From the sequence record MK573636: DNA of 64,000 nt; one strand, given 5' to 3'. The translations under genes were made by a program, and so were the position numbers. This document shows positions 2,031-52,423 of this stretch, piece after piece. A model generated the notes under the pieces. It was not told the origin of the DNA, searched no databases, and worked only from the letters and a program-made list of their open reading frames with translations. Positions within the stretch are counted from its first letter, which is position 1. Each line of letters opens with the position of its first letter. The stretch is from Escherichia phage vB_EcoM_PHB13.

Positions 2031-3854
2031 ATGTCTGAATTTTTGCTGTTAGATGATCGCGCTCACTGTCTTAAGAGACCTTCAATGTACATCGGGTCAA
2101 CTACTTATGAATCACATAATCGTTTCCTATTTGGAAAATGGACCAAAGTTTCATACGTTCCCGGTCTAGTTAAAATTATTGATGAAATTATCGACAACTC
2201 TGTAGACGAGGCGATCCGCACTAATTTTGAGTACGCTAATGTTATTAGTGTGGATATAAAAGATAACATTGTGTCAGTAACAGATAATGGTCGCGGTATT
2301 CCGCAACATATTGTTACGACGCCAGAAGGGAAACAGATTCCACAACCAGTTGCTGCATGGACACGAGCTAAAGCAGGGTCTAACTTTGATGATACAAATC
2401 GTGTTACTATGGGTATGAATGGGATCGGAAGCGCGCTCACATCATTTTTCTCGTCCTGGTTTACTGGTGTGACGTGTGACGGAGAGAATGAACTGACCGT
2501 TCAATGTACCAATGGTGCAGAAAATATTAGCTGGTCATCCAAGCCGTCAAAACTGAAAGGAACTAAGGTTACGTTCTGCCCCGATTTCGATCATTTTGAA
2601 GGTATGATCATGTCACAAGAAATTTCAGATGTGATTTGCGACCGAATGTATTCATTGAGTGTAATCTTTCCTAAGATCACGTTTAAATTTAACGGCAAAA
2701 AGATAACCAGCAAGTTCAAGGATTATGCTAAACTATACAATGATGATCCGTTTGTCATCGAGGATAAAAACTTCTCACTTGCCCTAGTTCCTGCGGTCGA
2801 GGGAGAAGGTTTTAAATCAGTATCCTTTGCTAATGGTCTGTTTACCAAAAACGGGGGAACACACGTAGACTACGTGACAGATGATCTTTGTGAAGAGATT
2901 GTAAAACGAATCAAGAAAGAATATAAGGTTGATGTTACTAAAGCTGCGGTTAAGTCTGGATTGACCTGTATTCTTATTGTTCGTGAATTGCCAAACCTCC
3001 GTTTTGATTCACAGACAAAAGAACGATTGACTAATCCAACTGGTGATATCAAGCGTCATATTGATCTTGATTTTAAAAAGCTGGCTAAAGTCATTGCGAA
3101 GAAAGAAAACATTATCATGCCTATTATTGCTGTAGTCCTGGCACGCAAAGAGGCAGCAGATAAAGCGGCAGCGACTAAGGCAGCAAAGGCAGCAAAACGG
3201 GCTAAGGTAGCAAAACACGTTAAAGCTAACCTTATTGGAACTGACGCAGAAACTACCCTGTTTTTGACGGAAGGTGATTCCGCGATCAACTATCTGATCT
3301 CTGTACGTGATCAAGATTTACATGGCGGTTTCCCATTGCGAGGTAAAACTCTTACAACATGGGAACAACCGGAGGCAAAGATCGTTAAGAACGCCGAAAT
3401 TTTTAACATCATGGCTATCACTGGTTTGCAATTTGGTGTTGATGCATTGGAAGTTATGCAATACAAAAATATTGCGATTATGACTGACGCGGATACCGAC
3501 GGGATCGGGTCTATTAAACCTAGTCTGATCTCCTTCTTTGCACGTTGGCCTGAATTGTTCGAAGATGGACGAATCCGGTTTATCAAAACGCCTATTATCA
3601 TTGCTGAACCAAAGAAAGGTGATGATGTTCGATGGTATTATGACCTAGAAGATTTCGAGAACGACCGAGATAATATCAAAGGTTACAACATTCGATATAT
3701 CAAAGGTTTAGCATCGCTCACAGAATCAGACTATCATCGCGTGATCAACGATCCTGTCATGGAGATCATCACGTTACCGGAAAACTATAAAGAGCTATTC
3801 GATTTGCTCTATAGTGAAGATGCAGATCAGCGCAAAATTTGGATGCAATCATAA
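2031..3854 (+). CDS. 39: DNA topoisomerase II large subunit, fused gp39+gp60 equivalent (607 aa)
   Basis: N-terminal GyrB-like ATPase region matches T4 gp39; C-terminal IAIMTDADTDGIGSI...RIWMQS matches T4 gp60; one uninterrupted ORF. Confidence 0.9.
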   Translation: MSEFLLLDDRAHCLKRPSMYIGSTTYESHNRFLFGKWTKVSYVPGLVKIIDEIIDNSVDEAIRTNFEYANVISVDIKDNIVSVTDNGRGIPQHIVTTPEGKQIPQPVAAWTRAKAGSNFDDTNRVTMGMNGIGSALTSFFSSWFTGVTCDGENELTVQCTNGAENISWSSKPSKLKGTKVTFCPDFDHFEGMIMSQEISDVICDRMYSLSVIFPKITFKFNGKKITSKFKDYAKLYNDDPFVIEDKNFSLALVPAVEGEGFKSVSFANGLFTKNGGTHVDYVTDDLCEEIVKRIKKEYKVDVTKAAVKSGLTCILIVRELPNLRFDSQTKERLTNPTGDIKRHIDLDFKKLAKVIAKKENIIMPIIAVVLARKEAADKAAATKAAKAAKRAKVAKHVKANLIGTDAETTLFLTEGDSAINYLISVRDQDLHGGFPLRGKTLTTWEQPEAKIVKNAEIFNIMAITGLQFGVDALEVMQYKNIAIMTDADTDGIGSIKPSLISFFARWPELFEDGRIRFIKTPIIIAEPKKGDDVRWYYDLEDFENDRDNIKGYNIRYIKGLASLTESDYHRVINDPVMEIITLPENYKELFDLLYSEDADQRKIWMQS

Positions 3855-4949: not shown

Positions 4950-7058
4950 ATGAAAATGCATATTGATAATGAAGAAGTATTTGGCAGTGACTTGAGCGGT
5001 GCGGTTGATTTTTCACTGAAAGCAAGTAGCAAGGCTTTTATGGTGCTTTCTAAGAACACTTATCAATATTGTGAGCGTGCTTGCGTCCGTGAGTATTCGT
5101 GCAATGCTACCGACACTCACAAAGAAGCCGGAACCTTAGATCGTCCGTTTGATATTCATTTACCGACTGCAATCGAACCGTATTTTTCTGTGCGTGATTA
5201 TGGTACTGGTATTCCGTCTAAGAAAGAATTAGAACAACTGTTTACGGTTTACTTTGAATCAACAAAAGACCAGACTAATGACTATATCGGGTCTTTTGGT
5301 TTGGGTGCGAAGTCTGCTTATAGCTATACCGACACCTTTACAATCGTAAACTATTACAATGGTCGCGCTTATGGCTTTACGGCATTTGTGCAAAACTCTA
5401 TGCCGAAAATGGTGCAGATTTTCGACGAACCGACCTATGAAGACAATGGTCTGAAAATCACTATTCCGGTGAAAGAAAAAGATATTAAAACATGGCATCG
5501 AGAAGCACAATTTGTACTGCGTCATTTTGGGGAACATAAACCGAATATCAACGCAATCGAAATTAACTATTTCCCTAGCTTTGATAATTATTATGTGTGT
5601 AATGGGCGTGATAACGATTCCTACGTGGTATATGCAATCATGGGTAAGATCCAGTATCCAATCCCGTATGAATATATTCGCGGAACATGGTTAGAAGCTG
5701 TAAACCGCCAGCACCAGACCATTTACATTAATTTTGAGTTGGGTGATCTGGACCTGATGCCATCGCGTGAAGAAGTTCACTTGTCAATTGAGACTAAAGC
5801 GAACATCGAAAAACGTATTGCAGAAATCAATGAAATGATGTTGGAAAAGGTTAAAGAAAAGATCGCCAGCATTGAAACAGAGCGTAAACTTGCTCAATTT
5901 ATGAGCGAGTATTCATCGACTCAACGCAATATTATTGGCAAGATGGGTAAGATCGGACAATGGGATGATCCGGTAGCAATCTATAATAAGTTTGTGAATG
6001 CTGGCAAAGATTCACCCAATGACGTAGAAGGACAGGTGTATACTCTGTATCATACTCGTCACACAATCAGTAAATTGCGCCCTGCTTTCGTTAGCAGTCA
6101 ATACAACATTACGCATTTTGTATGGATGCATAAAGAAGATATTACGTGTCTTATTGATGATACCGATAAACCGAAACTGCGTGCACTGACTCTTAACGGC
6201 ATGGTCCAGGAATACGGCATCAATAAAAAGGTGCTGGTGTTCCGTCAGAACAACGAAAAACATATGGAGACTTTCGAGTACATCAAACAGTATTATGATG
6301 ATTCTGAAATGACCGTGATTAAGGTATCAGAGGCCGATGATCTTCGTGCTAAAGCAATTAAGCCGGAGAAGACCGAGCGTACACAACGTGAATCAACTCC
6401 TAAGCTGCCTAACGTGTATATCATGGAAAAGATTGGTGACAGTTGGCATAAAACCAGCCATCATATGAAAGCGGCAGAGATTCGCGAGTTATCAGGCTTG
6501 CACATGTTCCGCGTGGGTGATGCATTCGAAAGCCGTAGCCGTCAATCGATCTATAATGAAAATACATTACACACGGCGCTTGACTACTTCGGGGTAACAA
6601 AGTATATTATTACCCGTAACGAGACACAAAAATATCTCGTTGACGAACAATTGGAATGTGCGCTAGAATTTGTTCGCGGTAAGCTGGCTGGTCTGGCTAA
6701 GAAGGTTAAGACCAATCATCTGGGGTATGGCGAATATCTGGGTGTGATCACTATGTTGTTTCATGACGATGAACTAGAACGCTGTGTTCCAGAATTTATT
6801 GACAGACTGTACGGTCGTCATTATAATAAAGAGGTTTCCAAGTTACTCCTTCGTACTCGTTGGATTATGGACGAAGAAACTAAAAAGATCTGTGATGAAA
6901 AATTCACGGCAGCAAACGAACGAATTAAAGCAGTTTGTGCGAAGTTTAAAGAGAATAGCCCGTTACTGTATGATATTGTAGATAACTGGTATCGTATTCT
7001 GCATAACGACAAACGCGCACAAGACTTTATGAAACTGGTTAAGAATGTTAAATTTTAA
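4950..7058 (+). CDS. rIIA: rIIA protein (702 aa)
   Basis: Size and HATPase-like N-terminal region (DYGTGIP...GSFGLGAKSAY) match T4 rIIA; it sits between the topoisomerase gene and rIIB as in T4. Confidence 0.85.
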   Translation: MKMHIDNEEVFGSDLSGAVDFSLKASSKAFMVLSKNTYQYCERACVREYSCNATDTHKEAGTLDRPFDIHLPTAIEPYFSVRDYGTGIPSKKELEQLFTVYFESTKDQTNDYIGSFGLGAKSAYSYTDTFTIVNYYNGRAYGFTAFVQNSMPKMVQIFDEPTYEDNGLKITIPVKEKDIKTWHREAQFVLRHFGEHKPNINAIEINYFPSFDNYYVCNGRDNDSYVVYAIMGKIQYPIPYEYIRGTWLEAVNRQHQTIYINFELGDLDLMPSREEVHLSIETKANIEKRIAEINEMMLEKVKEKIASIETERKLAQFMSEYSSTQRNIIGKMGKIGQWDDPVAIYNKFVNAGKDSPNDVEGQVYTLYHTRHTISKLRPAFVSSQYNITHFVWMHKEDITCLIDDTDKPKLRALTLNGMVQEYGINKKVLVFRQNNEKHMETFEYIKQYYDDSEMTVIKVSEADDLRAKAIKPEKTERTQRESTPKLPNVYIMEKIGDSWHKTSHHMKAAEIRELSGLHMFRVGDAFESRSRQSIYNENTLHTALDYFGVTKYIITRNETQKYLVDEQLECALEFVRGKLAGLAKKVKTNHLGYGEYLGVITMLFHDDELERCVPEFIDRLYGRHYNKEVSKLLLRTRWIMDEETKKICDEKFTAANERIKAVCAKFKENSPLLYDIVDNWYRILHNDKRAQDFMKLVKNVKF

Positions 7059-22417: not shown

Positions 22418-25400
22418 TTAGTCTTCCCAGATAAAGTCTACGGTACGAGTCAGATTATTGGCGATGATTTTAACATTACCAACTTTGATCCAATCACGAA
22501 CCGTCATAGAGTTCATTAAACCACCTTCTGCAACTACTGCCCCGATTTCCTGAGCTGTAGGCTTATTCTGTTTGGTGTAAATTTCACCCCATGCGGTCCA
22601 TTGACCACCAGTACCGGAACGGATATAATGTTTATGAGTACCATCAGGGGACCAAAGCTGGGTAAGCCCGTCCGCGTCAGTACCCCATTGCATCAGAGTA
22701 CCGTTTTTCTTCTCTGGATAAGTTTCTTTGATGTTCTGGGTAGTAACTCGCATATTCCAGAAACCGATGTTACCGATTGCTGGAGCGGTTGCCGCGCTAG
22801 CTTCATGCTTAACAGAAACAATAGGCGCATTATCCATAGTCAGCTTACCGACCATTGTATCGCCAGCATTCTTAACAAACTGACGGTTAAGAACTTCGTC
22901 AGCGTTTCCTGCGTGTACGATCTGATATTTCTGTCCGGCGATCTCTGTAGTTAACGTTTGATGACCTGCCTTGATGTTAACACTTCCACCGTGCCCGATA
23001 TTCAGCATACCATCTGGGGAACGAGTCATTGCCGGATTAGACTGGTCAACAATGTATAAACCGCCTTGTTTCGCATACAGGTTACGACCTGCAATAAAGT
23101 CTCTATATGCTGTCGCGTCGCCATTGTGTTTCATAGCAAAGGCGTAATGCTCGACGACTCCACCATCATTGATTTTACCGAAAGCGATAGCATCACTATC
23201 AACAACTTGCGCTGTTCCAGTACCACCAACGATAATAGACCATGAGTTTTTCATGCCTTCCGATGCGGTTGTGCCATGCAGAGTAATTCCGGTGTGTCCG
23301 TCAACTCCACGCTCACCCAACACCAGATGACCATTACTCGGATCATCAGTAGAGTTCTTAGTCACAGACAGAGTTTCAAAGGAACCAGATTTTAAGCACT
23401 CTAAATCGCCCTTCACGTTAACGTTTTTATTAAACGTGTAATTGCTCTCTATGGTCTGGTCAATGTCTCTACGCGCCCATTTAGCGGCCTCTACGTTACC
23501 CAATTTCAAACTATTCTGAGCGGTTGCCATCTTAGGTAAGAAATTAGCAAGTGCGTAGTTTAATCCTTTAGGGGTAACAGCAATTCCGTCATGCTGGTAG
23601 TTTCCTAGTTCTTGAGTAGAACCTTGCAGATTATCACCAACAAAACAGTTTTCCTGAGTAGCAACTTTCAAGAATCCACGACGCGCTTCTGTTGCTTTCC
23701 ATGTATCCTCTGTCTGAACAACATATTTGAAGTTCTTCGGAGAAATTGCTACATTAGCCAGTGTACCAGCCACGGTTTCGGCTTGAGTACCAACTCGGAT
23801 AATACCTTCTTTACCTTCGGTGGCTTTTTTGCCTTGTAGCTTTTTAGGCGTGATGATTGTAGTATCATCTTGACCAGCATCCGTAAGCTGAGTAGTAGCA
23901 ACTTTAGCGACACCTTTTGTGTCTTCGGTTGCATCCAGACCGCTGATCATGATACCTTGCCACAAATCACCAGTAAGGTTAAGCCCCTGAGTCGGATCTA
24001 CTTTCAAACGCTGTGCATTCTCAAAGAAGGTTTTAATCTTCAATGGGGTAGAAATGCGAGCATCGTCAAGACCTGCGTCAAACTCCGGTTGAGTTGCAAT
24101 TTCTGCTAAACCATGTAAAGTTTCCGTTGCGCGGCGAGTATGCAGCTTTTTAGGCGTGATGATATGGTTATCACTTTGACCTAAGTTTGTTTCTTCCTGA
24201 GTTGCAATTTCAGCGATACCAGTGCGCGATTCTGTAGCAGTACGTTTCGTTAGCGTGCGAGTCGTGATTAGTAAAGCATCTTGCGGGGTTGATTCTGTAG
24301 CCCCTTGCACTTCCGCGTCAGTTGCCAGATAGCCAACACCACGGGAAGTTTCGGTCGCCTTGACTTCGTTGATGTTTTGTGGCGTAACAATTTTAGCATG
24401 GTCGTTGATGTTATAGATCCCTGTACCAGCTTCGCCACGTCGAGCGGCAGCACTACCGCCAACCTGAACAATTTCAGCAATACCAGCGAGATCTTCGGAA
24501 GCGCGACGTTCTTCTAATTTCTTAGGAGTTATTGCGCGAGTATCGTCTAAACCTTCGTTGGTTTCATGTTGAGTTGCAATTTCCATCACACCACGACGGG
24601 CTTCGGTAGCAACACAATCATTTAACTTTTTAGGCGTAACGATAACATCATCCAGGAAGCTGGAACCAGTATCTTGATGCGTTTCCGCTTGAGTCGCAAT
24701 GCGAGCAATACCGCGTCGAGTTTCGTTGGCGGTTTTATTAGCCAGCATTTTTGGTGTTACCGCAACTTCGTCGCTAGGATTCTCTTCATGATTTTTATTC
24801 GTTTCAGTCTGGGTAGCCAGTGCAATTACACCAACACGATCTTTACGAGTCGGATCTACTCGTTCTACAATCGGGTGAGCATGTGCCACCAACCAGTATT
24901 TCTTACCATCATCAACTTCTGAATAAGAGAACTCCAGATAAGGTACATAATCATTTGCAGCGTTGAAAGACAATTCAGACACTCCCGTCCATGTATCGGT
25001 CCCATTGAATGGGTACTCGCTACGCTTAGGAAACTGAACCATGTTTTTCTGAATAAGGATTTTTGTATCCTCTGTGGCGGTGATAATACGGCAATTCTGG
25101 TTTCCTTGCATATACTGCATAGAAACTTGAATACGATCACCCTGCTCGACATTGGTCGGCAGCGTCAGAGTAACATCACGATCACCAAATACAGCAACAT
25201 AGCTATTAGGTTGCAAGCGAGTGTCATCGATGATCGGTTTAAGACGAACAGACTGATCACCATCCCACAAACGCCATAAGTTTTCCGTCTTGTCAAAGAT
25301 GAATACACCATGACCGCTACGCTTACCGATAATCTCTTTTAGACCGGACGTGCCAATTGATTGTTCTTCTGCGTGCTCATGAACTTTAACCGTAACGTGG

Positions 25401-26158
25401 TTGGTTGCGGTTAATCCGTCAAGGTCTGTAGTCTGGATCATGTCGCCATTGTTGGCAAACTTAGGAAGCACTAAGGTAATATTACCCAACGAACTACGAC
25501 GAAATACCTGATCACCATTCTGCATTTGAATAGCATCAATCGCTGGCTGTGCGTACACACCGCGCGGCTCTGTTCCCGTCTGATAAACATGCCAACGATT
25601 CCGAACAAAGATGAAATAGTTCATTGCATACGGGGTAGTGCAATACCATTTTCGGTTATACACATTACCGTTATGGTAAAACTCATGTCCTGAACTCAAG
25701 AACGATAATTCGTTAACACCACACTTGCCACCGATATCTTTTACTGTTATAGTGTCTCCCTCTGCTGGTTTAGTTGGCATAGAGAAAGTCAAGTTTGCAA
25801 ATTGACCATCTGCTGCGATATAATCACCAGACTTTAAAGGAGTATCACCGGAAGTTGCTGCAATATAATCCCAACGTGGGTCAGTGCGCAGTGCTTGCCA
25901 TTTAGTCGGGTCAAAATCACCTGCTGGCTTTGTGATATCTTCTTTTGCATAATACGGACGGTTTTGATAGATTGTAGTTCCGTATTGATCATAACCGCGA
26001 GTTGTGTCATACTGAGTAATACCATTATGGTAATTGAAAAATTCAACGTTGACCGCATCCGTTGATGTGTTTTTATCTGCGTATGCTACATTGACGACCT
26101 TTTCATTACCAGCGTCAAAGCCAAATGTGGCCTTGAAATGTTGAGAAAAATCTGCCAT
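22418..26158 (-). CDS. 34: long tail fibre proximal subunit gp34 (1246 aa)
   Basis: N-terminus MADFSQHFKATFGFDAGNEKVVNVAYADKN matches T4 gp34; internal ...GIARIATQAET... and ...GIAEIATQ... repeats and C-terminus ...IRDFLRIGNV-like also match. Confidence 0.9.
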   Translation of the reverse strand: MADFSQHFKATFGFDAGNEKVVNVAYADKNTSTDAVNVEFFNYHNGITQYDTTRGYDQYGTTIYQNRPYYAKEDITKPAGDFDPTKWQALRTDPRWDYIAATSGDTPLKSGDYIAADGQFANLTFSMPTKPAEGDTITVKDIGGKCGVNELSFLSSGHEFYHNGNVYNRKWYCTTPYAMNYFIFVRNRWHVYQTGTEPRGVYAQPAIDAIQMQNGDQVFRRSSLGNITLVLPKFANNGDMIQTTDLDGLTATNHVTVKVHEHAEEQSIGTSGLKEIIGKRSGHGVFIFDKTENLWRLWDGDQSVRLKPIIDDTRLQPNSYVAVFGDRDVTLTLPTNVEQGDRIQVSMQYMQGNQNCRIITATEDTKILIQKNMVQFPKRSEYPFNGTDTWTGVSELSFNAANDYVPYLEFSYSEVDDGKKYWLVAHAHPIVERVDPTRKDRVGVIALATQTETNKNHEENPSDEVAVTPKMLANKTANETRRGIARIATQAETHQDTGSSFLDDVIVTPKKLNDCVATEARRGVMEIATQHETNEGLDDTRAITPKKLEERRASEDLAGIAEIVQVGGSAAARRGEAGTGIYNINDHAKIVTPQNINEVKATETSRGVGYLATDAEVQGATESTPQDALLITTRTLTKRTATESRTGIAEIATQEETNLGQSDNHIITPKKLHTRRATETLHGLAEIATQPEFDAGLDDARISTPLKIKTFFENAQRLKVDPTQGLNLTGDLWQGIMISGLDATEDTKGVAKVATTQLTDAGQDDTTIITPKKLQGKKATEGKEGIIRVGTQAETVAGTLANVAISPKNFKYVVQTEDTWKATEARRGFLKVATQENCFVGDNLQGSTQELGNYQHDGIAVTPKGLNYALANFLPKMATAQNSLKLGNVEAAKWARRDIDQTIESNYTFNKNVNVKGDLECLKSGSFETLSVTKNSTDDPSNGHLVLGERGVDGHTGITLHGTTASEGMKNSWSIIVGGTGTAQVVDSDAIAFGKINDGGVVEHYAFAMKHNGDATAYRDFIAGRNLYAKQGGLYIVDQSNPAMTRSPDGMLNIGHGGSVNIKAGHQTLTTEIAGQKYQIVHAGNADEVLNRQFVKNAGDTMVGKLTMDNAPIVSVKHEASAATAPAIGNIGFWNMRVTTQNIKETYPEKKNGTLMQWGTDADGLTQLWSPDGTHKHYIRSGTGGQWTAWGEIYTKQNKPTAQEIGAVVAEGGLMNSMTVRDWIKVGNVKIIANNLTRTVDFIWED

Positions 26159-26209
26159 TATTGGGTCTCCTGTTATAATATGAAATTATTTATTATGTGA
26201 GGTGTTGTT

Positions 26210-26774
26210 GTGGCAAAAACAAAATTTTGGGATATCGAGACACAGAAAGCGATAAAAGGTAGATTTTATCATGTTGATGGAATATTATACCATTTAAAGG
26301 ATTCTGTATCTGCTGGATTCCGAAAAGAAGGGTCCAGATACAAAAAAAGGTGATGTGGTAAGGGTACGTCTCCATAAAGAAGGATATTTATACTTTACAT
26401 TTTATAACAATGGTCATAAACTTAATCTGTTTGTACATAGAGTTGTCTGGTTTTTAGAGTATGGTACTCAGGTTGAACTAATAGATCACATAGACCAAGA
26501 CAAAACTAACAATAGACCGTCAAACATGAGAGAAGCAACAGAACAGCAAAATCAGTTTAACGTCTCAAAGAAAAAGGCTTGCCATAGCAAATATAAAGGT
26601 GTATCATTATCAACAAGCAAGAAAAAGCCGTGGAAGGCGTATATTGTTATCAATCGAAAGAATATACATCTAGGATACTTTGAGACAGAAGTTGAGGCGG
26701 CTAAGGCTTATGACCGTGCAGCACATGAAAGAGTTGGCGAGTATGCTTATTTAAATTTTCCAAAAAGAGGATGA
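26210..26774 (+). pseudogene. HNH-AP2 homing endonuclease-like gene interrupted by a frameshift at an A7 tract
   Basis: Fragment 26210-26353 (...FWDIETQKAIKGRFYHVDGILYHL...) stops just after AAAAAAA (26342-26348); downstream ORF 26355-26774 carries the HNH (FVHRVVW...IDHIDQDKTNN) and AP2 (YKGVS...AYIVINRKNIHLGYFETEVEAAKAYDRAA) motifs; removing one A joins them. Confidence 0.6.
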
Positions 26775-26780
26775 TATATT

Positions 26781-26966
26781 ATGGTTAAAGTTGATTTGTC
26801 AGAAGGTGCAAAATGGGTAGTTGACAGAATCCCTGATAAGGATTATAATTATTTCCGTGCCGAATTAAACAATGCAATTCTGCGAGTTATGGAAAAGTAC
26901 GGGTATGACCGTGAAGTATCTAACTCGTTTGGTGAATATGTTGTTGTGAGAGTGGAGAGAACTTAA
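26781..26966 (+). CDS. hypothetical protein (61 aa)
   Basis: ORF with AGAGGA RBS upstream. Confidence 0.5.
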   Translation: MVKVDLSEGAKWVVDRIPDKDYNYFRAELNNAILRVMEKYGYDREVSNSFGEYVVVRVERT

Positions 26967-26968
26967 TT

Positions 26969-27916
26969 ATGACGTATAACCCGTTTACAAAAACTACCGC
27001 TACACTTAATGATTTCTTCGATGATCCAGAAGATAAACTGCCGGAAGGTGTGCATTTGATTGATATGTCGCAGCTTATGATTGCTACTATCTCGCATACC
27101 TTTAAACCGGAAGATCCTATTAGTGAAGGTATGATCCGTCATCTTATTCTTGACACCATGCGTTATAATATGACAAAATTCAAAGAGCAATACCCAATTA
27201 CGGTACTTGCCTTTGATTCAAGCAAAGGTTACTGGCGACGTGATATCGCACCTTACTATAAACGCAACCGTAAGGAAAAACGAGACGCAGATCCGCGTGA
27301 TTGGGAGATGATCTTTGCTGCGATCAATAAGATCACCGAAGAGTTTAAAGAGAACATGCCTTATCACGTTATTAAGGTTGACAAAGTTGAAGCAGATGAT
27401 ATAATCGCTGTGTTAACTAAAAAGTTTTCTGTAGAAGGTCGCCAGGTGCTAATCAACTCCGGTGATGGTGACTACACACAGTTGCACAAATACAAAAACG
27501 TGAAACAGTGGGCACCAGTACAGAAAACATGGAAGAAGTGCAAATATGGTAGCCCATACAAAGACCTTATGGTAAAATGTGTTAAGGGTGACGCAAAAGA
27601 CGGTGTAGCTTCTATCAAGTGCCGTAGTGATTTCATTATCTCACGACTGGAAGGGGAACGAGCTAAACCAATTGCAACCAAATGGTTAGAGCAAATTTTC
27701 GATGCCGAAGATCCAAAGTCTTTGATGACAGAGGAAGAAGCACGACGCTTTGACGAAAACCGCGAACTTATTGATTTTGAATTTATTCCTGATAACATCG
27801 AATATGAAATTTTGTTAGCATGGGAGAAATCTAAACCAGCACCACGCGGTAAAATTTATAACTATTTTGTAACAAATGCGTTAGTTAAAATGTTGCAGAA
27901 AATTGGTGAGTTCTAA
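26969..27916 (+). CDS. rnh: RNase H / flap endonuclease
   Basis: GVHLIDMSQLMIATI... and downstream acidic clusters match T4 RNase H (305 aa); sits next to gene 34 as in T4. Confidence 0.85.
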   Translation: MTYNPFTKTTATLNDFFDDPEDKLPEGVHLIDMSQLMIATISHTFKPEDPISEGMIRHLILDTMRYNMTKFKEQYPITVLAFDSSKGYWRRDIAPYYKRNRKEKRDADPRDWEMIFAAINKITEEFKENMPYHVIKVDKVEADDIIAVLTKKFSVEGRQVLINSGDGDYTQLHKYKNVKQWAPVQKTWKKCKYGSPYKDLMVKCVKGDAKDGVASIKCRSDFIISRLEGERAKPIATKWLEQIFDAEDPKSLMTEEEARRFDENRELIDFEFIPDNIEYEILLAWEKSKPAPRGKIYNYFVTNALVKMLQKIGEF

Positions 27917-29060: not shown

Positions 29061-29741
29061 ATGATCAGAAACCGTCTTCCTCCAGATCCAGATATGCGAA
29101 TTAATGCTAAATCTGTGTATATGTTATATTGCATGATGAAAGCTCATATGAACGGGCGTTATGATTGCGTAAAATACAATTGGAGGATGCGGTTGTCTGA
29201 TGCCGCATTCAATAAACGCAGAGATAAGTATTATTTCGCAAAATTAGCGGAAAAGTACAATCTAAGAGAACTATACTTCCTATTCCTAAGCAATCTGGTG
29301 GCTAATACCGATGCATGGGTAGGTGAAATCACTGATGTTGACGCATACGGCTTTTATATGGAATACATAGGAAAGATAACCGATGCAGCAACAAGATTTG
29401 ACGATGACATTAAAAGTCTGGTATACTTCTCCGAGAAACGCGGGGTTACTCTTAAAGAGCTAATTACATACAATCCCGCAACCGAAACAAGCGGTATCTT
29501 TAAACTACTGCAAAATCGGATTATATCGTTTGAGTCGTTTATGTTGTTAGATAGCTTTCTAAATATAATCGACGAACACGACAAGGTAGCCAAAGACTTG
29601 ATTTGGCAAACTTATAGTGTTAAAATGAAGGCGTACAAGAAACTACTTGTTATTGACGCCGCAAAAGCAAGAGCATTATTTGTTAAAGTAGTTAAAGAGT
29701 GTAAAGAAATATCTCAATTAAAAACCGAAACAAATAGTTGA
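29061..29741 (+). CDS. 59: helicase loader gp59
   Basis: ...KSVYMLYCMMKAHMNGRYDCVKYNWRMRLSDAAFNKRRDKYYF... matches T4 gp59 closely. Confidence 0.9.
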   Translation: MIRNRLPPDPDMRINAKSVYMLYCMMKAHMNGRYDCVKYNWRMRLSDAAFNKRRDKYYFAKLAEKYNLRELYFLFLSNLVANTDAWVGEITDVDAYGFYMEYIGKITDAATRFDDDIKSLVYFSEKRGVTLKELITYNPATETSGIFKLLQNRIISFESFMLLDSFLNIIDEHDKVAKDLIWQTYSVKMKAYKKLLVIDAAKARALFVKVVKECKEISQLKTETNS

Positions 29742-29765
29742 CAAGTAAATTTAAATCTGTATAAT
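29738..29765 (+). promoter_or_regulatory. sigma70-type promoter upstream of gene 32
   Basis: TTGACA 29738-29743, 16-nt spacer, TATAAT 29760-29765. Confidence 0.5.
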
Positions 29766-29795
29766 AATCTAGTAAATTAATCAAAAGAAGGAATA

Positions 29796-30770
29796 GTGAA
29801 TATGTTTAAACGCCAAGATTCTTCCAAACTGCAAGCTCAACTGGCCGCACTGAAAGGTGGCAACGGTTTCTCCAAAGAAGATCCGAAAGAGTGGAAGATT
29901 AAGACTGATGCAGCAGGTAACGGTGAAGCCCTGATTCGCTTCCTGCCGTCTAAGACAGAAGACGGTCTGCCGATTGTGAAACTGGTAAACCATTCCTTCA
30001 AAGTTAATGGCAAATGGTATTGGGAAAACTGCTCCAGCACCCACGGTGATTTTGATTCTTGCCCTGTGTGCAAATATATTAACGAAAAAGACCTGTACAA
30101 TACCGATAAAACAGAATGGCAACTGATTAAGCGTAAAGCGTCTTACTACGCAAATATTCTGGTACTGAAAGATCCTCAAGCACCAGAAAATGAAGGTAAG
30201 GTATTCAAATTCCGCTTCGGTCAGAAAATTTATGATAAGATCGTTGCAATGGTGAACGTGAATACCGATATGGGCGAAGTTCCGGTCGATGTAACTTGTG
30301 TGTTCTCTGGTGCTAACTTCCTCCTGAAAGCTAAGAAGGTTGATAAACACCAGAACTATGATGATTCTCGTTTCATGCAGCAATCACAGCTTCCGAAAAT
30401 TGAAGACGAAGCATATCAGAAATATCTGATGGAAAACATGGTTGATCTGAGTGAGATTGTAGCGCCTAGCCAGTTTAAACCGTTCGATGAACTGGAAACC
30501 AAATTTAAGAAAACTATGGGCGTTTCTATGGTAGCTGGTGCTGCGGCTTCCAGTGCTGCGGCAGCGATTAACAGCCAGCTTGACGATTTTGACGCACAGA
30601 TGAATGCATTCGATTCTGGTATGACCGCAGCTAGCACTGTAGTTGGTATTAACGCAGCTAGCACGGCGTTAGATTCTTCCGCTGATGACCTGATGGCATC
30701 GCTGGATCTGGGTGGCGGTACTTCCTCCGCTTCTGATCTGGATGATCTCGACGCTCTGTTAGGGATGTAA
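29796..30770 (+). CDS. 32: single-stranded DNA-binding protein gp32
   Basis: MFKRQDSS...[30 protein letters not shown]...[17 protein letters not shown]...acidic C-terminus matches T4 gp32; ATG 29802 is the likely start. Confidence 0.95.
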
Positions 30771-37918: not shown

Positions 37919-37946
37919 AAGTCGCCCATAGTGGCGACTTTTTTTG
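37919..37946 (+). terminator. rho-independent terminator
   Basis: Hairpin GTCGCC...GGCGAC followed by TTTTTTTGTT. Confidence 0.65.
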
Positions 37947-47207: not shown

Positions 47208-47552
47208 ATGTTCTTTATGTTTATCTATATCCTTTTTGTTTTCCTGGTAGGCATGTACGCAAGCCGTTTAAACCGTAGCGTTATCGGTTATGTTCTCCTA
47301 TCTTTGATCATTAGCCCGTTGATCACCTTTATCATTTTGTTGGTGTTGGGTCCAACTAAATCATATGAACAGGAACAAGCAGACAAGCTAAAAGCAGAGA
47401 TGGTAGAGAAACAATTTGTTCAACTGTATCTAGAAAACCCAGAGTTTGAGGAAGTTTCCACCCTTAAGCGAATGTATGACGATCTAACACGATACCCTAA
47501 CTATCGAAATGTGCTGGCTATGGAAGAAGCCATTAAGCTCATGAAAAAATAA
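47208..47552 (+). CDS. small membrane protein (114 aa)
   Basis: Two hydrophobic helices (FMFIYILFVFLVGMY, VLLSLIISPLITFIILLVLG). Confidence 0.5.
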   Translation: MFFMFIYILFVFLVGMYASRLNRSVIGYVLLSLIISPLITFIILLVLGPTKSYEQEQADKLKAEMVEKQFVQLYLENPEFEEVSTLKRMYDDLTRYPNYRNVLAMEEAIKLMKK

Positions 47553-47565
47553 TTCAAAAAAGTTG

Positions 47566-47594
47566 TTGACAGGGGATCACGTATCCCCTATACT
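47566..47594 (+). promoter_or_regulatory. early promoter with stem-loop (PeSL-like, GGGGATC family)
   Basis: TTGACA 47566-47571, stem GGGGAT-CACGT-ATCCCC, TATACT 47589-47594; conserved leader and AGGAGAATCAAAA-ATG. Confidence 0.6.
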
Positions 47595-47637
47595 ACACAC
47601 ATCAAAACGAAACACACTTTCTTAAGGAGAATCAAAA

Positions 47638-47949
47638 ATGAAATACATCGTAACGCTGCCAATGATTGACTTCGACGGAACCATGAACACCCAGAAGACC
47701 ATGAGCGCGGAGAACCAACTGAAAAACGCTACCCTGATTCGTGAAGTTCGCAAGGCACTGGCAAAAGAATTTAACACCAAAATTCATTCTGTAACTGGCG
47801 AACGTTTCGCGGATCATCTTGATATCAATATCAAACCAGTGCGCAACGGTGTTATCTCTGTAACAACCAACCGCCCACATGCTGACGCTGATAATCTGAC
47901 CGCTCGCGCAGAAGATGTAATTATGACCGTTATCATGGAAAAACTTTAA
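47638..47949 (+). CDS. hypothetical protein (103 aa)
   Basis: ORF after the cassette; shares A.R.VR.A.AKEFN.K with the 50954 ORF. Confidence 0.55.
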   Translation: MKYIVTLPMIDFDGTMNTQKTMSAENQLKNATLIREVRKALAKEFNTKIHSVTGERFADHLDINIKPVRNGVISVTTNRPHADADNLTARAEDVIMTVIMEKL

Positions 47950-47958
47950 AAAAAGTTG

Positions 47959-47988
47959 TTGACAGGGGAGGTTAAACTCCCCTATAAT
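47959..47988 (+). promoter_or_regulatory. early promoter with stem-loop (PeSL-like)
   Basis: TTGACA 47959-47964, stem GGGGAG-GTTAAA-CTCCCC, TATAAT 47983-47988. Confidence 0.6.
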
Positions 47989-48022
47989 ACACACATACCG
48001 AAACGAACTAGGAGAATCAATT

Positions 48023-48202
48023 ATGAACTTCAACGAAATCATCGCTAAAATCCGCTACAACGAAGAAACCATTGAACTGATGCAAAACAATATCACCAAT
48101 GGATATATGATTGCAGCGTCACAAGAAATCATTGATTTGACGGTAGCAGAAAATGCTCAGTTGAAACATCAACTTTCAACGGCTGGCGTGATTGTTATGT
48201 AA
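48023..48202 (+). CDS. hypothetical protein (59 aa)
   Basis: MNFNEIIAKIRYNEETIELMQ... after AGGAGAATCAATT-ATG. Confidence 0.45.
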   Translation: MNFNEIIAKIRYNEETIELMQNNITNGYMIAASQEIIDLTVAENAQLKHQLSTAGVIVM

Positions 48203-48219
48203 TAAAGAGAGGTGACTAA

Positions 48220-48522
48220 ATGGCAAAAGTTCAGGTAGGTGAGGTCTTCAAAATGGAAGACCATACCGTGGAAGAGATGAAAGGCGCAGTATTGAAAGTA
48301 ATTAATTCAATGTGGCGTAGTGTGCTTTACATCAACTTTATCGACGGTGATGTGTGGTGGGCTAGCGATAGCGATAAATGGGATATCAAGTTCTACAAAG
48401 GTCATACTCACTGGTTAGGATCAGAGGATGTTGTAGAAGTTCTGGCGGTTGATGTTATGCCAGGAGAGATCGAGAATCTTAGCGGAACAGCAAAAGAAGC
48501 ATTGACACGCCATTTTGCGTAA
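48220..48522 (+). CDS. H-x-H-W family paralogue 1 (100 aa)
   Basis: ...YINFIDGDV...KGHTHWLGSEDVVEVLAVDV... Confidence 0.55.
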   Translation: MAKVQVGEVFKMEDHTVEEMKGAVLKVINSMWRSVLYINFIDGDVWWASDSDKWDIKFYKGHTHWLGSEDVVEVLAVDVMPGEIENLSGTAKEALTRHFA

Positions 48523-48578
48523 TGTAGTATAACAATAATCGGGAGGGTAATACTCTCCCACAAATTGAGGATAATATT

Positions 48579-48770
48579 ATGTGTGGTCTTAAAATGGTTG
48601 CTGAATATAAGCGAACTGGTAATGTTATGATGTATCGACGCAATGCCAACGAAGAATGGAAACCTTCAAACCGCATTAAATCCATCCAGACGTTTATGAA
48701 TAACATCAAAGAAAACCTTTTCGTTAAGCGTGCTGGTGCTGGACATTGGGAAGTTTACGAAGCTGTATAA
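48579..48770 (+). CDS. hypothetical protein (63 aa)
   Basis: ORF after GAGGATAATATT-ATG; preceded by a stem GGGAG...CTCCC lacking a -35. Confidence 0.5.
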   Translation: MCGLKMVAEYKRTGNVMMYRRNANEEWKPSNRIKSIQTFMNNIKENLFVKRAGAGHWEVYEAV

Positions 48771-48786
48771 TTTTGAGGAAAATATT

Positions 48787-49095
48787 ATGGAACAAACTAA
48801 GCTATTTGTCGCGGAACCTTTTGTAAGAGACAATAAAAATCTGGCTAAAACAATCATTTTGTATTCGGATTGGATCTTTTATATCGATGGTAATTTAGAC
48901 GTATATTGTCGCACAGCTCCAACTGATTCGTTTTATATCGAAGAAAACGACACTCATAATCATTGGTATGATGGAAACGACAAAACCGAACTAGCTGTTG
49001 TCCTAGCGTCAGACGTAGAACCTGAAAACGCGGACAAAGTAGCAGACAAATTTATGAAGTACGCATATAAAGATAAAAATGAAGATGAAGAATAA
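48787..49095 (+). CDS. H-x-H-W family paralogue 2 (102 aa)
   Basis: ATG 48787; ...WIFYIDGNLDVY...DTHNHWYDGNDKTELAVVLASDV... Confidence 0.55.
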   Translation: MEQTKLFVAEPFVRDNKNLAKTIILYSDWIFYIDGNLDVYCRTAPTDSFYIEENDTHNHWYDGNDKTELAVVLASDVEPENADKVADKFMKYAYKDKNEDEE

Positions 49096-49102
49096 AAAGT
49101 TG

Positions 49103-49131
49103 TTGACAGGGGATCACCGATCCCCTATAAT
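49103..49131 (+). promoter_or_regulatory. early promoter with stem-loop (PeSL-like, GGGGATC family)
   Basis: TTGACA 49103-49108, stem GGGGATC-ACC-GATCCCC, TATAAT 49126-49131. Confidence 0.6.
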
Positions 49132-49165
49132 ACACACATACCAACGAGATATAGGAGAATCAAAA

Positions 49166-49333
49166 ATGTTCCAGACTAAAGCAGAATGCGAAGCATACAT
49201 TGTAGCAAACCACGGTGAAGACTACCTGAAATTCGATATCGTAGTAGCACAGAAGATCACCGGAATGGTTGCAAAATATCTGGGTGTTAAAGAAGGTTAC
49301 TATCCTAGCAACGCACCAGAAATTAACAAATAA
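49166..49333 (+). CDS. small protein (55 aa), copy 1 of a duplicated gene
   Basis: MFQTKAECEAYIVANHGEDYLKFDIVVAQKITGMVAKYLGVKEGYYPSNAPEINK; near-identical to 52424-52591. Confidence 0.6.
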   Translation: MFQTKAECEAYIVANHGEDYLKFDIVVAQKITGMVAKYLGVKEGYYPSNAPEINK

Positions 49334-49336
49334 TAG

Positions 49337-49371
49337 TTGACAATGATTAAAGGGAGTAGTAAGATACTCCC
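49337..49371 (+). promoter_or_regulatory. early promoter with stem-loop (PeSL-like, GGGAGTA family)
   Basis: TTGACA 49337-49342, TAAGAT 49360-49365 within GGGAGTAGTAAGATACTCCC. Confidence 0.6.
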
Positions 49372-49397
49372 ATCAAGACAACAAACGGAGAATCAAA

Positions 49398-49577
49398 ATG
49401 AAAGCTATCGAAGTTCAGAAGTACATGGAAATCATCGTTGAAAGTAAAGCACATTTAGTGTTGACTACTCACGTAGGATATGATAAAAATGTGCATATGC
49501 TGGTAGACAACATCGGCTGGATGAAGTTTAATCCTAACGAGAACGTACAAGCTCAAGAAATGACCATCCCTTTCTAA
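49398..49577 (+). CDS. hypothetical protein (59 aa)
   Basis: MKAIEVQKYMEIIVESKAHLVLTTHVGYDK...; not in the ORF track. Confidence 0.45.
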   Translation: MKAIEVQKYMEIIVESKAHLVLTTHVGYDKNVHMLVDNIGWMKFNPNENVQAQEMTIPF

Positions 49578-49589
49578 GAGGAATATATT

Positions 49590-49868
49590 ATGATGCGAAT
49601 TACTGCAACGCTGGATAAGACACACAAAGAAAGATTTTTCGGTATGATCTTAAAAACGCCGATTTTCGATAATTACCTTTATGTTGACTATAACGGTCAC
49701 ATTAGCTATAAATGTAAAAATGATATTCGTGATTCCTTTGGTGATAAATCACAAGCCGATATTCACGATCATTGGTGGAACCATGACGAACCTTTACGGG
49801 TTATCGCAGTTGATGTAAAAACAACAAAAGAAGCTGATAAGGTAGTGAATGATTATGAGCAAATTTAA
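49590..49868 (+). CDS. H-x-H-W family paralogue 3 (92 aa)
   Basis: ...NYLYVDYNGHISY...DIHDHWWNHDEPLRVIAVDV... Confidence 0.55.
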   Translation: MMRITATLDKTHKERFFGMILKTPIFDNYLYVDYNGHISYKCKNDIRDSFGDKSQADIHDHWWNHDEPLRVIAVDVKTTKEADKVVNDYEQI

Positions 49869-50064
49869 AGATTATAAAGCATATCAACAGATCTTGCGAG
49901 TATACGAACCAGAGTTCGCCGAAAAGATGATGGAAGATGCATCAAAATGCCCGTCCTTTTCTGGAAACAAAAACCATTATTCTACTGGTATTGTATCATG
50001 GAAAGAAACCGCATATACTCAACAATGGATAGATGTGTTTTCAAAAACTCTTGATTGGTGTTAA
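49855..50064 (+). CDS. small protein, MSKFKDY family copy 1
   Basis: MSKFKDYKAYQQI...MMEDASKC...; tandem paralogue of the next ORF. Confidence 0.5.
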   Translation: MSKFKDYKAYQQILRVYEPEFAEKMMEDASKCPSFSGNKNHYSTGIVSWKETAYTQQWIDVFSKTLDWC

Positions 50065-50066
50065 TT

Positions 50067-50282
50067 ATGAGTAAATTTAAAGATTATCGAGCATATAAAG
50101 CGATCTGCGATATATTCGATGAAAAGACCGCTCATGCAATGATGGAAGATGCAGAACAATATGAATCATTCGTCAATTCCAAAGATTGCACAGTAAACGA
50201 GGTTGTGTGCTGGAAAGATACAAAGTATGAAGAAAAATGGATTACTGTGTATTACGGAGAACTAGAATATGAAATTAACTAA
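50067..50282 (+). CDS. small protein, MSKFKDY family copy 2
   Basis: MSKFKDYRAYKAI...MMEDAEQY... Confidence 0.5.
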   Translation: MSKFKDYRAYKAICDIFDEKTAHAMMEDAEQYESFVNSKDCTVNEVVCWKDTKYEEKWITVYYGELEYEIN

Positions 50283-50589
50283 AAAGATTTTCCCAGAATT
50301 GCGTAACTGTCTGTTACTGGTTACTGAATATAAACCTTATACGATCTACTTGTATGTTGATGAAAATCTGAAAATCCGTTACTATGATTATACGTCTCCA
50401 GTAATGAGATCATTTGCTCACGCGATAGCAAACAATTGTATGAATCATAATCATTGGGTAAGTGATAATGATCATGATGCGTCAGAAGTTGTAGTGATCG
50501 CATGGAATCTATCACCAGCGGAAGCAGATCAAGCACGCATTAAGCATTATGCGAAAAACAATTGGTTTGACCTTATAAGTGAGGACTAA
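50269..50589 (+). CDS. H-x-H-W family paralogue 4 (106 aa)
   Basis: ...YTIYLYVDENLKIRYYDY...NHNHWVSDNDHDASEVVVIAWNL... Confidence 0.55.
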   Translation: MKLTKKIFPELRNCLLLVTEYKPYTIYLYVDENLKIRYYDYTSPVMRSFAHAIANNCMNHNHWVSDNDHDASEVVVIAWNLSPAEADQARIKHYAKNNWFDLISED

Positions 50590-50593
50590 TATT

Positions 50594-50872
50594 ATGTTCA
50601 AAGTAGGTGATAAGTTTATTCTTAGTCGTGATATTCTCCCTAATCTGAAAGGTTGTATCATCAATCCTAGTAAAAATTCATGGTTTTATCTGTTTATCGA
50701 CGACAAACTGAATGTACGCGCCGAATATAAAGAAGGTCTTCGTACTGGTCTAGGTTTCTTTCACGATCATGATCATAGCCATTGGCTAAACGGTGGATTC
50801 GAAGCAACGGTGCTAGCGGTTGATGTGACTTACACGAACATCATAGAAAAATATCAAAAAATTATTTTATAA
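50594..50872 (+). CDS. H-x-H-W family paralogue 5 (92 aa)
   Basis: ATG 50594 after GAGGAC; ...WFYLFIDDKLNV...HDHDHSHWLNGGFEATVLAVDV... Confidence 0.55.
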   Translation: MFKVGDKFILSRDILPNLKGCIINPSKNSWFYLFIDDKLNVRAEYKEGLRTGLGFFHDHDHSHWLNGGFEATVLAVDVTYTNIIEKYQKIIL

Positions 50873-50878
50873 AAAGTG

Positions 50879-50913
50879 TTGACATAAGATCGGGTGTATA
50901 GCATAATACACCC
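50879..50913 (+). promoter_or_regulatory. early promoter with stem-loop (PeSL-like, GGGTGTAT family)
   Basis: TTGACA 50879-50884, 17-nt spacer, CATAAT 50902-50907 in loop of GGGTGTAT...ATACACCC. Confidence 0.6.
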
Positions 50914-50953
50914 ATCGAAACGAGATACACTTTCTAACTAGGAGAATCAAATT

Positions 50954-51241
50954 ATGGCATACATCACTATCACTCTGAAAGTTAACAAATTTGCTCACGC
51001 TGCACACGAAACCGATAATGCAATCCGTAACAACAAGTTTGCACGTCTGGTACGCGATGCAGTAGCTAAAGAGTTCAACTTCAAATTTGCAGATGGTAAA
51101 GTTATCACTAAATGGACTCATGACGGCGAAACTAAAGTAGAACTTGCTGACAACTTCGCAAATCAGGAATATGCACACCGCCGCATCAATGAAATCATCA
51201 GCGATGAACTCTACTACGGAGTACAGGAAGGTTTGTTTTAA
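50954..51241 (+). CDS. hypothetical protein (95 aa)
   Basis: ORF after the cassette; weak similarity to the 47638 ORF. Confidence 0.55.
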   Translation: MAYITITLKVNKFAHAAHETDNAIRNNKFARLVRDAVAKEFNFKFADGKVITKWTHDGETKVELADNFANQEYAHRRINEIISDELYYGVQEGLF

Positions 51242-51245
51242 TATA

Positions 51246-51267
51246 GGGGGCGTTAAGCCCCTTTTAA
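51246..51267 (+). terminator. rho-independent terminator
   Basis: Hairpin GGGGC-GTTAA-GCCCC followed by TTTT. Confidence 0.55.
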
Positions 51268-51290
51268 TCTATCTGAATGAGGATATCACT

Positions 51291-51599
51291 ATGAAAAATC
51301 TTGTAGTTGAATTTACCCGCGAGAATTTACCACAATTTCGCAATTCTCTGCTTAAACTAGAGAACAGTAATTATGATGTATATTTTTACATCACCGAAGA
51401 TCTAGAGATCCTTTACGCTGATTACCCAGGTCCGATCCGTACCTTCGAAACCGCATCAAAATATAAAAATGTGCACGGTCATGAGCACTGGTTACGAGAA
51501 AACCCAGGTCGCAAGAAAGCACGCGTTAAAGTGTTGGCGATTGACATAACACCAGCATACGCCGACCGGATTGCACAGAATGATTATTTGTCTAAATGA
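51291..51599 (+). CDS. H-x-H-W family paralogue 6 (102 aa)
   Basis: ATG 51291; ...YDVYFYITEDLEILYADY...HGHEHWLRENPGRKKARVKVLAIDI... Confidence 0.55.
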   Translation: MKNLVVEFTRENLPQFRNSLLKLENSNYDVYFYITEDLEILYADYPGPIRTFETASKYKNVHGHEHWLRENPGRKKARVKVLAIDITPAYADRIAQNDYLSK

Positions 51600-51606
51600 T
51601 TTCATT

Positions 51607-51633
51607 AGCCGACCTTAGTGTCGGCTTTTTTAT
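51607..51633 (+). terminator. rho-independent terminator
   Basis: Hairpin AGCCGAC...TCGGCT followed by TTTTTTATT. Confidence 0.6.
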
Positions 51634-51657
51634 TGCATAAAATTTAAAAAAAAGGCA

Positions 51658-51686
51658 TTGACACCAGATCACGCCTATAGCATAAT
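51658..51686 (+). promoter_or_regulatory. early promoter (degenerate GGGTGTAT-family cassette)
   Basis: TTGACA 51658-51663, 17-nt spacer, CATAAT 51681-51686; right arm ATACACCC kept, left arm degenerate. Confidence 0.5.
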
Positions 51687-51726
51687 ACACCCATCGAAAC
51701 GAGATACCACTTAGGAGAATCAAACA

Positions 51727-51996
51727 ATGGCGCTGACTAAAACCACTACCAACTTTGCAAAACGTCACGGCTTCGACCTTGAAATCAATAGCTTTAACGA
51801 TTACACCCTTCTGTGTGTATATGAAATCGAAAATGATTGCGAGTGGATGTTCAGCTATCGCGTAAACGAAGACGGATCTTTCACTTGGAACGGAAATATC
51901 TATCTTGCACAGGAAGTAAAAGAAGAACTTCCGGCGACTATCAAAGATGAGAAACATTTACGTCAAGTTTTAAAATTTATTTCTGAAAATATCTAA
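51727..51996 (+). CDS. hypothetical protein (89 aa)
   Basis: ORF after TTAGGAGAATCAAACA-ATG. Confidence 0.55.
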   Translation: MALTKTTTNFAKRHGFDLEINSFNDYTLLCVYEIENDCEWMFSYRVNEDGSFTWNGNIYLAQEVKEELPATIKDEKHLRQVLKFISENI

Positions 51997-52003
51997 AAAG
52001 TTG

Positions 52004-52032
52004 TTGACACCAAAGTAAGAACATAGCATAAT
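52004..52032 (+). promoter_or_regulatory. early promoter (degenerate GGGTGTAT-family cassette)
   Basis: TTGACA 52004-52009, 17-nt spacer, CATAAT 52027-52032, then ATACACCC. Confidence 0.5.
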
Positions 52033-52065
52033 ACACCCATACCGAAACGAACTGGAGAATCAAAA

Positions 52066-52347: not shown

Positions 52348-52361
52348 TTTTAAAAAAGTTG

Positions 52362-52390: not shown

Positions 52391-52423
52391 ACACACATAC
52401 CGAAACGAAATAGGAGAATCAAA

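Follow-up and report, generated by a model that had tools for sequence, protein, structure and literature searches.

The genome of Escherichia phage vB_EcoM_PHB13 contains two short tandem reading frames between a tail fibre gene and the gene for RNase H. The question raised by this locus is whether the two frames are the remains of one gene and, if so, whether that gene was broken in nature, was misread during sequencing, or is still expressed across the break. A stretch of 64,000 nucleotides of the phage genome (sequence record MK573636), called the window in the following, was analysed for this purpose. A preceding sequence-only reading had proposed that a single HNH-AP2 homing endonuclease gene was split at a run of seven A, and had listed as possible causes a decaying endonuclease, a homopolymer sequencing error, and slippage-dependent expression.

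Arrangement of the split gene

The window represents an RB49-like T4-type coliphage (Krischvirus, Straboviridae), which is about 97% identical to the phages KFS-EC, G37-3 and MIZ6. The two open reading frames (ORFs; Table 1) were indeed found in different frames (2 and 0), the longer one being in the +1 frame relative to the shorter, and the switch fell at the A7 run as proposed; this is the sole A/T run of at least six nucleotides within positions 26000-27000. When one A was removed, an uninterrupted ORF resulted, as had been predicted, although with a length of 187 amino acids instead of about 188. The first ORF consists of the ancestral residues 1-46 and one out-of-frame Arg; it is ended after 47 codons by the TGA at 26351-26353, and the intact endonuclease frame is absent from this genome. 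Frame 0 is open upstream of 26355, from about 26304, and thus both frames overlap across the A run. The GTG at 26355 is situated 1 nt past the upstream stop codon, with AGGTGA immediately 5' of it. All catalytic and DNA-binding residues are encoded in this downstream ORF, whose product is an exact match to GenBank entry QBQ74273.1, designated "homing endonuclease" of Escherichia phage vB_EcoM_PHB13 (MK573636).

The Shine-Dalgarno-like GAGGT upstream of the first GTG was kept in all carriers of the gene. At the other end, the stop codon of the endonuclease falls within the ribosome-binding region of the neighbouring 61-aa ORF. Inside that ORF, just 5' of rnh, a perfect sigma-70 consensus promoter was noticed at 26821-26849 (+ strand; TTGACA-17 nt-TATAAT, 12/12), which would uncouple expression of rnh from events in the upstream endonuclease gene.

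Table 1. Features of the endonuclease locus in the window, and lesions in alleles of the gene (window coordinates).
Feature	Position	Strand	Remarks
Gene 34, long tail fibre proximal subunit, 1246 aa (left neighbour)	22418..26158	-	Divergent; orthologue annotation
Sigma-70-like promoter candidate	26152..26179	+	10/12 match, TG before -10; directed into the endonuclease gene
Mobile insert, free-standing homing endonuclease cassette, ~590 bp	26172..26762	+	From presence/absence and junction comparison
Shine-Dalgarno-like GAGGT	26199..26203	+	6 nt 5' of GTG start; read from sequence
N-terminal fragment ORF, 47 aa, MAKTKFWDIETQKAIKGRFYHVDGILYHLKDSVSAGFRKEGSRYKKR, then stop	26210..26353	+	GTG start, frame 2
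C-terminal ORF, 139 aa	26355..26774	+	Internal GTG start, frame 0
HNH_3 (His-Me finger) nuclease motif	26430..26555	+	Residues 74-115 of repaired protein; Pfam
AP2/ERF-type DNA-binding domain	26586..26738	+	Residues 126-176 of repaired protein; Pfam, PDB matches
Conserved 61-aa ORF (right neighbour)	26781-26966	+	Adjoins the endonuclease gene
rnh, RNase H (right neighbour)	26969-27916	+	Orthologue annotation
Lesion: A7 homopolymer AAAAAAA	26342..26348	+	Window; one A above the A6 (Lys45-Lys46) of intact alleles; allele group 2
Lesion: A5	Same run		L015, L016 (DRR831796, DRR831793); allele group 2
Lesion: nonsense TAC>TAA	26290 (Tyr27)		L014 (SRR23253384); allele group 2
Lesion: extra A, 24 nt downstream	After 26365		Phage FL20; allele group 2
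Lesion: 11-bp deletion	26428-26438		L031 (ERR11478199); allele group 2

The repaired protein and its relatives

Both the HNH motif and the AP2 domain expected in the downstream ORF were recovered there. In the repaired protein, i.e., the translation with one A removed, the Pfam match to HNH_3 (PF13392) reached 46.1 bits at a cut-off of 24.8, and D92-H93 (26484-26489), N105 and N114 are included in this motif. Across 83 homologues, H93, N105 and R107 were invariant, and D92, H76, N101, N114 and N117 were conserved to at least 90%; all of them are encoded in the downstream ORF. The AP2 domain obtained 28.9 bits in Pfam (E 1.4e-6), a score below the gathering cut-off of 33.3, and AP2/ERF chains from the PDB matched the same C-terminal domain with E values of 6e-8 to 6e-5 (phmmer).

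The similarity of the upstream fragment to this family had been named as a point on which the idea of a single ancestral gene depended. The 47-aa fragment alone gave no Pfam match, yet its residues align with the N-termini of full-length homologues of 47-54% identity (P0002-P0007). It is a genuine part of the family, since distant full-length homologues align over it and a YK.GD motif at the junction is conserved in them. A search of a large protein collection with the repaired protein yielded a cluster at 90% identity with 27 sequences, mostly of 187 amino acids. One member, P0129, which was predicted in independent assemblies, equals the repaired window protein at every residue, including the window-specific Ser34; the pairing of the 47-aa and 139-aa ORFs is therefore not a chance juxtaposition.

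An AlphaFold (AF2) model of the intact protein, made from an input alignment of 83 sequences, had a pLDDT of 95.2 and a pTM of 0.87, with values of 94-98 for the N-terminal blocks. The nuclease part is predicted to adopt a beta-beta-alpha-metal fold, and the top PDB match of the model was I-HmuI (1u3e; Foldseek probability 1.00, rmsd 2.7 Å over 102 columns). The C-terminal domain was modelled with strands at 131-133, 141-147 and 150-157 and a helix at 160-174, i.e., as the three-stranded sheet packed on one helix of AP2 domains; it could be superposed on 7et4, 7wq5 and 1gcc with rmsd values of 1.2-1.7 Å and identities of 35-44%.

I-HmuI, from Bacillus phage SPO1, was the best match by sequence as well as by fold (residues ~44-159, E 6e-5), and its His-Me catalytic residues, DH...N...N, are conserved in the window protein. 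The identity is just 22%, however, and I-HmuI is intron-encoded, nicks one strand and possesses a C-terminal helix-turn-helix module, whereas the window protein is free-standing and has an AP2 domain in that place. The plant AP2/ERF proteins onto which its C-terminal ~60 residues superpose are AtERF1 (1gcc), WRI1 (7wq5) and TEM1 (7et4). In contrast to these, the AP2 domain of the window protein is fused to a nuclease, and presumably it provides target recognition, not transcription control. An evolutionary link between HNH-AP2 endonucleases of phages and cyanobacteria and the plant AP2 factors is attributed to Magnani et al. 2004 in PMC1524935.

Free-standing HNH-AP2 homing endonuclease genes have been described in T4-related phages, for example RB49ORF040c and genes of RB16, RB43 and JSE (PMC1524935; PMC2993671, Table 5). 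The window gene shares with them the HNH_3 plus AP2 architecture, the free-standing intergenic position, the sporadic presence among close relatives and the phage group (Krischvirus, RB49-like); it differs from them in its locus, the gene 34 / rnh spacer, and in being frame-broken. To our knowledge, a biochemically defined target has been established for none of the HNH-AP2 genes of T4-related phages.

The insert, its alleles and their lesions

The endonuclease gene is carried on an insert, which replaces about 43 nt of the gene 34 / rnh-side intergenic spacer of phages with an empty site. Carriers made up 8 of 58 Krischvirus records; about 50 had an empty site, shorter by 548 bp. When loci were sampled via the neighbouring 61-aa ORF, one of ten was a carrier and nine were empty. 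The right junction was placed at about 26762/3, where AAAAGAGGATGA is common to empty sites and the last endonuclease codons merge into the ribosome-binding site of the neighbour. On the left side, SNPs at 26172, 26178 and 26183-26186 distinguished, without exception, the 25 carriers from the 6 empty sites compared; these junction SNPs are candidates for target-site immunity or co-conversion. Two of them, the element-linked G at 26172 and A at 26178, convert TTTTATAGT of the empty site to TGTTATAAT, the extended -10 (26171-26179) of a promoter candidate, and the site may work as a promoter. The sporadic, discrete and intergenic pattern is that of a free-standing homing endonuclease gene.

An uninterrupted ORF of 564 nt and 187 aa with A6 was present in six phage records (PTE-Eco09, ELT4, KFS-EC, G37-3, pEJ01 and FL15). 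For the intact 187-aa copy of KFS-EC (MH560358.1, NC_055757.1; record positions 88510-89089) no gene is annotated in GenBank or RefSeq, and the record of FL20 contains just the 82-aa tail of its own frameshifted copy. The same endonuclease is labelled "HNH endonuclease, partial [Bacillus atrophaeus]" (WP_239816030.1) on a 2.5-kb contig, and is listed as an "Escherichia coli" protein, EHU9813694.1, on a contig of 165,715 bp; these entries, P0123 and P0124 in the P0001 cluster, most likely represent phage DNA in bacterial assemblies.

Some further observations concern the surroundings of the insert. Inside the 5' end of gene 34, a dense polymorphic patch at 26060-26082, with some 12 changes over 23 nt, sets RB49, Phi1, GEC-3S and ECD7 apart from MIZ6, JSE and every carrier of the insert; this mosaic tract falls within the first ~30 tail-fibre codons, and the carriers have a single haplotype, which occurs also in two empty-site phages. 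Two contigs in which the gene 34 / rnh site is empty (L036, L045; ERZ27232925 k141_220579 and ERZ28573645 scaffold_15) contain at 2638-3186 a different HNH-AP2 gene of 191 aa, about 50% identical and P0005-like, directly 3' of rnh; its insertion site is a second homing-endonuclease site, about 1 kb from the first. In L014, L015, L023 and L025 (~6370-6564), a 198-aa HNH_3 gene follows right after gene 59; the window has no such gene at 29741-29796, as gene 59 (29061-29741) directly adjoins gene 32 (29796-30770). The stretch from rnh to gene 32 seems to be a hotspot for endonuclease insertion.

A similar paralogue of the endonuclease was not found elsewhere in the window. Within the genus, paralogous HNH genes exist, because G37-3, pEJ01 and FL15 have a second, more distant DNA match to the endonuclease gene elsewhere in their genomes, and several empty-site Krischviruses (JSE, kvi, W115 etc.) have an HNH core of 120 nt with ~75% identity at another locus. 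A repeat of another type, AAAAAGTTGTTGACAGGGG...CCCCTATA, recurs between small ORFs at ~47550-54800 of the window, e.g., at 47556-47600, 49094-49130, 52352-52390, 52592-52640 and 54730-54770, and comprises an early-promoter -35, a GC stem-loop and a -10. These copies look like the PeSL promoter-stem-loop cassettes which were described for RB49 and phi1 (PMC2839356, PMC4122927).

At the nucleotide level, the element of the window was compared with that of 24 other carriers, the census of run lengths being drawn from phage records and from Logan/ENA contigs reached via protein look-ups. In the comparison of orthologues which had been suggested, the run was A6 in 22 of the 24 and A5 in two, and A7 occurred in none. 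DNA-pattern scans across the A run, allowing any run length, gave nothing in the collections viral_contigs, metagenome_contigs and genome_contigs, and an exact product look-up of the 47-aa fragment found it not on record. Three independent metagenome/SRA assemblies, L018 (DRR770853), L019 (ERZ27297797) and L020 (ERZ28635246), have A6 and an intact 187-aa ORF, their protein being P0129. They are identical to window positions 26210-26774 at the other 564 bases and differ in the A run only; the allele of the window is therefore a one-step derivative (+1 A) of an extant intact allele, and the proposal of one ancestral HNH-AP2 gene that was split is well supported. The window-specific flank base, 26195A, is common to L018 and L019.

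The alleles form two groups with about 9-12 site differences; group 2 includes the window, FL20 and most metagenomic copies. All five lesion types (Table 1) were seen in just this one group within the available sample. Intact copies of group 2 outnumber the disabled ones (P0126 in 24 contigs, P0001 in six, P0129 in four, P0130 and P0131 in two each). Since L014-L016 were retrieved by exact matching to the 139-aa product, which can return only upstream lesions followed by an unchanged C-terminal ORF, no selection can be deduced from the N-terminal clustering of the lesions or from the "synonymous-only" differences. Purifying selection acting on the 139-aa ORF, as it might be concluded from the synonymous-only differences of L014-L016, was rejected for this reason of ascertainment. 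As the alleles compared show, the endonuclease gene has been knocked out repeatedly and recently in nature, and the A6 tract has slipped both ways.

Decay, sequencing error or expression across the A run

Most likely, the copy in the window is now a pseudogene and represents the degeneration phase in the life cycle of homing endonucleases. A free-standing HNH-AP2 homing endonuclease gene has probably been disabled by a real one-base insertion; the extra A would then be biological and not a sequencing error, and the enzyme of the split gene would be inactive. Presumably the intact 187-aa enzyme would cut the gene 34 / rnh intergenic region of insert-less phages, and the endonuclease gene would be copied in through recombinational repair after cleavage. 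Replication slippage on the A6 tract (Lys45-Lys46) would have led to the gain of one A, whereupon translation from the normal GTG would halt after 47 residues, with the catalytic and DNA-binding parts out of frame. Restoration of the frame at a low level, or re-initiation at GTG 26355, may occur from the split gene.

Natural inactivation is recurrent, because four further, different lesions were found in the allele group of the window. Such recurrent lesions, together with the presence/absence polymorphism, fit the decay of a homing endonuclease gene in which the A6 run is a slippage hotspot. Runs of six A are classical hotspots of spontaneous frameshifts in T4 (Streisinger slippage, rII). Here also, +1 (A7) and -1 (A5) changes occur at one A6 run in a T4-type phage, but as natural variation in a dispensable selfish gene and not as laboratory-selected mutations. 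Degeneration of homing endonuclease genes after fixation is part of their accepted life cycle, as reviewed for T4-type phages (PMC2988022), where the cycle of invasion, fixation, degeneration and loss (Goddard-Burt model) is also discussed. The co-occurrence, at a single locus, of empty sites with both intact and independently disabled copies is in keeping with this cycle. The decay is very recent, however, in that each disabled copy is separated from an intact allele by a single lesion and, at most, a few other changes.

A less probable, but still serious, explanation is that the true run in the phage is A6, with the 187-aa endonuclease intact, and that the seventh A arose by a homopolymer miscall or assembly error in the deposited genome. 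The window differs from the intact L018-L020 by one base only, within a homopolymer, and A7 was seen in this single sequence, neither other carriers nor contig pattern scans containing it, so that one miscall would look identical; moreover, the record of PHB13, MK573636, has just the 139-aa ORF annotated. Two tests were directed at an assembly that is error-prone in general. All ORFs of KFS-EC and MIZ6 of at least 80 aa were compared with the window by ungapped tblastn, and apart from the endonuclease no real gene in the 64 kb was interrupted by a change of frame; the other flags were stop-to-stop extensions 5' of true starts or unannotated antisense ORFs. Gapped tblastn was discarded for this purpose, since it missed the known frameshift, which was bridged by a low-identity gapped HSP, and the unfiltered indels from blastn comparisons with KFS-EC and MIZ6 were too noisy for counting frameshifts, due to paired compensating gaps in divergent stretches. 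In a reciprocal comparison, differences in homopolymer length amounted to 5 of 41 runs for the window, 8 of 43 for KFS-EC and 7 of 43 for MIZ6; they were thus no commoner than between the relatives, those which could be placed were intergenic, and an apparent "+1" excess in the window was rejected. Runs longer by one base in the window than in both KFS-EC and MIZ6 were noted at 37939-37945 (T7), 47948-47954 (A7) and 54745-54749 (G5), all apparently intergenic. With the frame-break and reciprocal homopolymer tests clean, there was no sign of systematic homopolymer miscalling. Against an error speak also the other lesions of this gene in independent data sets, among them two cases of A5 in the run itself, and the fact that A7 is a rather short run for a consensus-level mistake in short-read assemblies.

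The third of the causes originally listed, slippage-dependent expression, is disfavoured, because the A7 arrangement was present in none of the 24 other carriers and no stimulatory RNA structure was detected; that the A7 allele still yields the full-length enzyme is very improbable. The route would be a +1 ribosomal frameshift at AAA-AGG-UGA, or omission of one A by RNA polymerase. In the ribosomal version, Lys-tRNA would re-pair on the AAA at 26346-26348 while the rare AGG and the stop codon await in the A site. A +1 shift on TAC AAA AAA AGG TGA is sterically possible and would indeed regenerate the exact ancestral protein (...YKKGDVV...), no Arg codon is used less often here than AGG (1.5 per 1000), and the window contains no phage tRNA gene. 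But the out-of-frame arrangement is not conserved, as A6 keeps the gene in frame in 22 of the 24 other carriers. The predicted fold of 26349-26430 (-10.7 kcal/mol; z = 0.57 versus shuffles) does not exceed chance, the nearest SD-like element, GAAGGG, is more than 10 nt away and thus not a well-spaced upstream stimulator, and A7 is short, since efficient transcriptional slippage generally takes runs of about nine or more. Programmed -1 frameshifting was rejected, as a -1 shift does not reach the HNH frame. Any leakage between the frames would be incidental, not programmed. It is likewise scarcely to be expected that the A tract tunes a selfish nuclease, with A7 keeping a trickle of wild-type enzyme via +1 frameshifting or RNA polymerase slippage; if true, the cost of the nuclease would be lowered while its homing potential and an easy reversion were kept, with A5, A6 and A7 circulating in Krischvirus. 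The same three alleles, all natural and in nearly identical backgrounds, might suggest a phase-variable contingency switch, by which the tract toggles the endonuclease reversibly between ON (A6) and OFF (A5/A7). This is highly unlikely: A6 is dominant (22 of 25), a tract of 6 nt is short for switching at a high rate, and the A run is missing from more distant homologues (YKAGD, YKHGD, YKIGD). Three of the five kinds of lesion, namely the nonsense change, the +A at another position and the 11-bp deletion, fall outside the tract and could not be undone by slippage, so that the signature is one of decay rather than switching. Very little probability is also left for the notion that the 139-aa HNH plus AP2 product is made alone from GTG 26355 and is functional in DNA binding or nicking, the split being tolerated or selected. 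Its ORF is intact and holds all catalytic and AP2 residues, its GTG closely follows the upstream stop and AGGTGA (see above), and three different upstream lesions are each followed by a reading frame for the same product. This recurrence, however, is an artefact of the exact search for the 139-aa product, which is not preserved in FL20 and L031; the spacing between SD and GTG is too short for efficient initiation; and the N-terminal 46 residues are conserved in the family, confidently modelled within the protein, and have their counterpart in the N-terminal sheet region of I-HmuI.

Of the causes listed at the outset, a decaying endonuclease is thus the probable one, with a sequencing error as the less probable second. 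The feature is an ordinary copy of an already known class of phage genes, disabled or, less likely, mis-sequenced. For annotation, this means that the 47-aa and 139-aa ORFs should be treated as one disrupted homing endonuclease gene (a pseudogene, or "frameshift, verify sequence") and not as a 139-aa "homing endonuclease". Current understanding is left unchanged, and the locus could be used, on a small scale, in teaching or as a test set. It provides a natural snapshot of the life cycle of a homing endonuclease within one phage genus, with empty sites, two intact allele groups and five independent one-step knock-outs.
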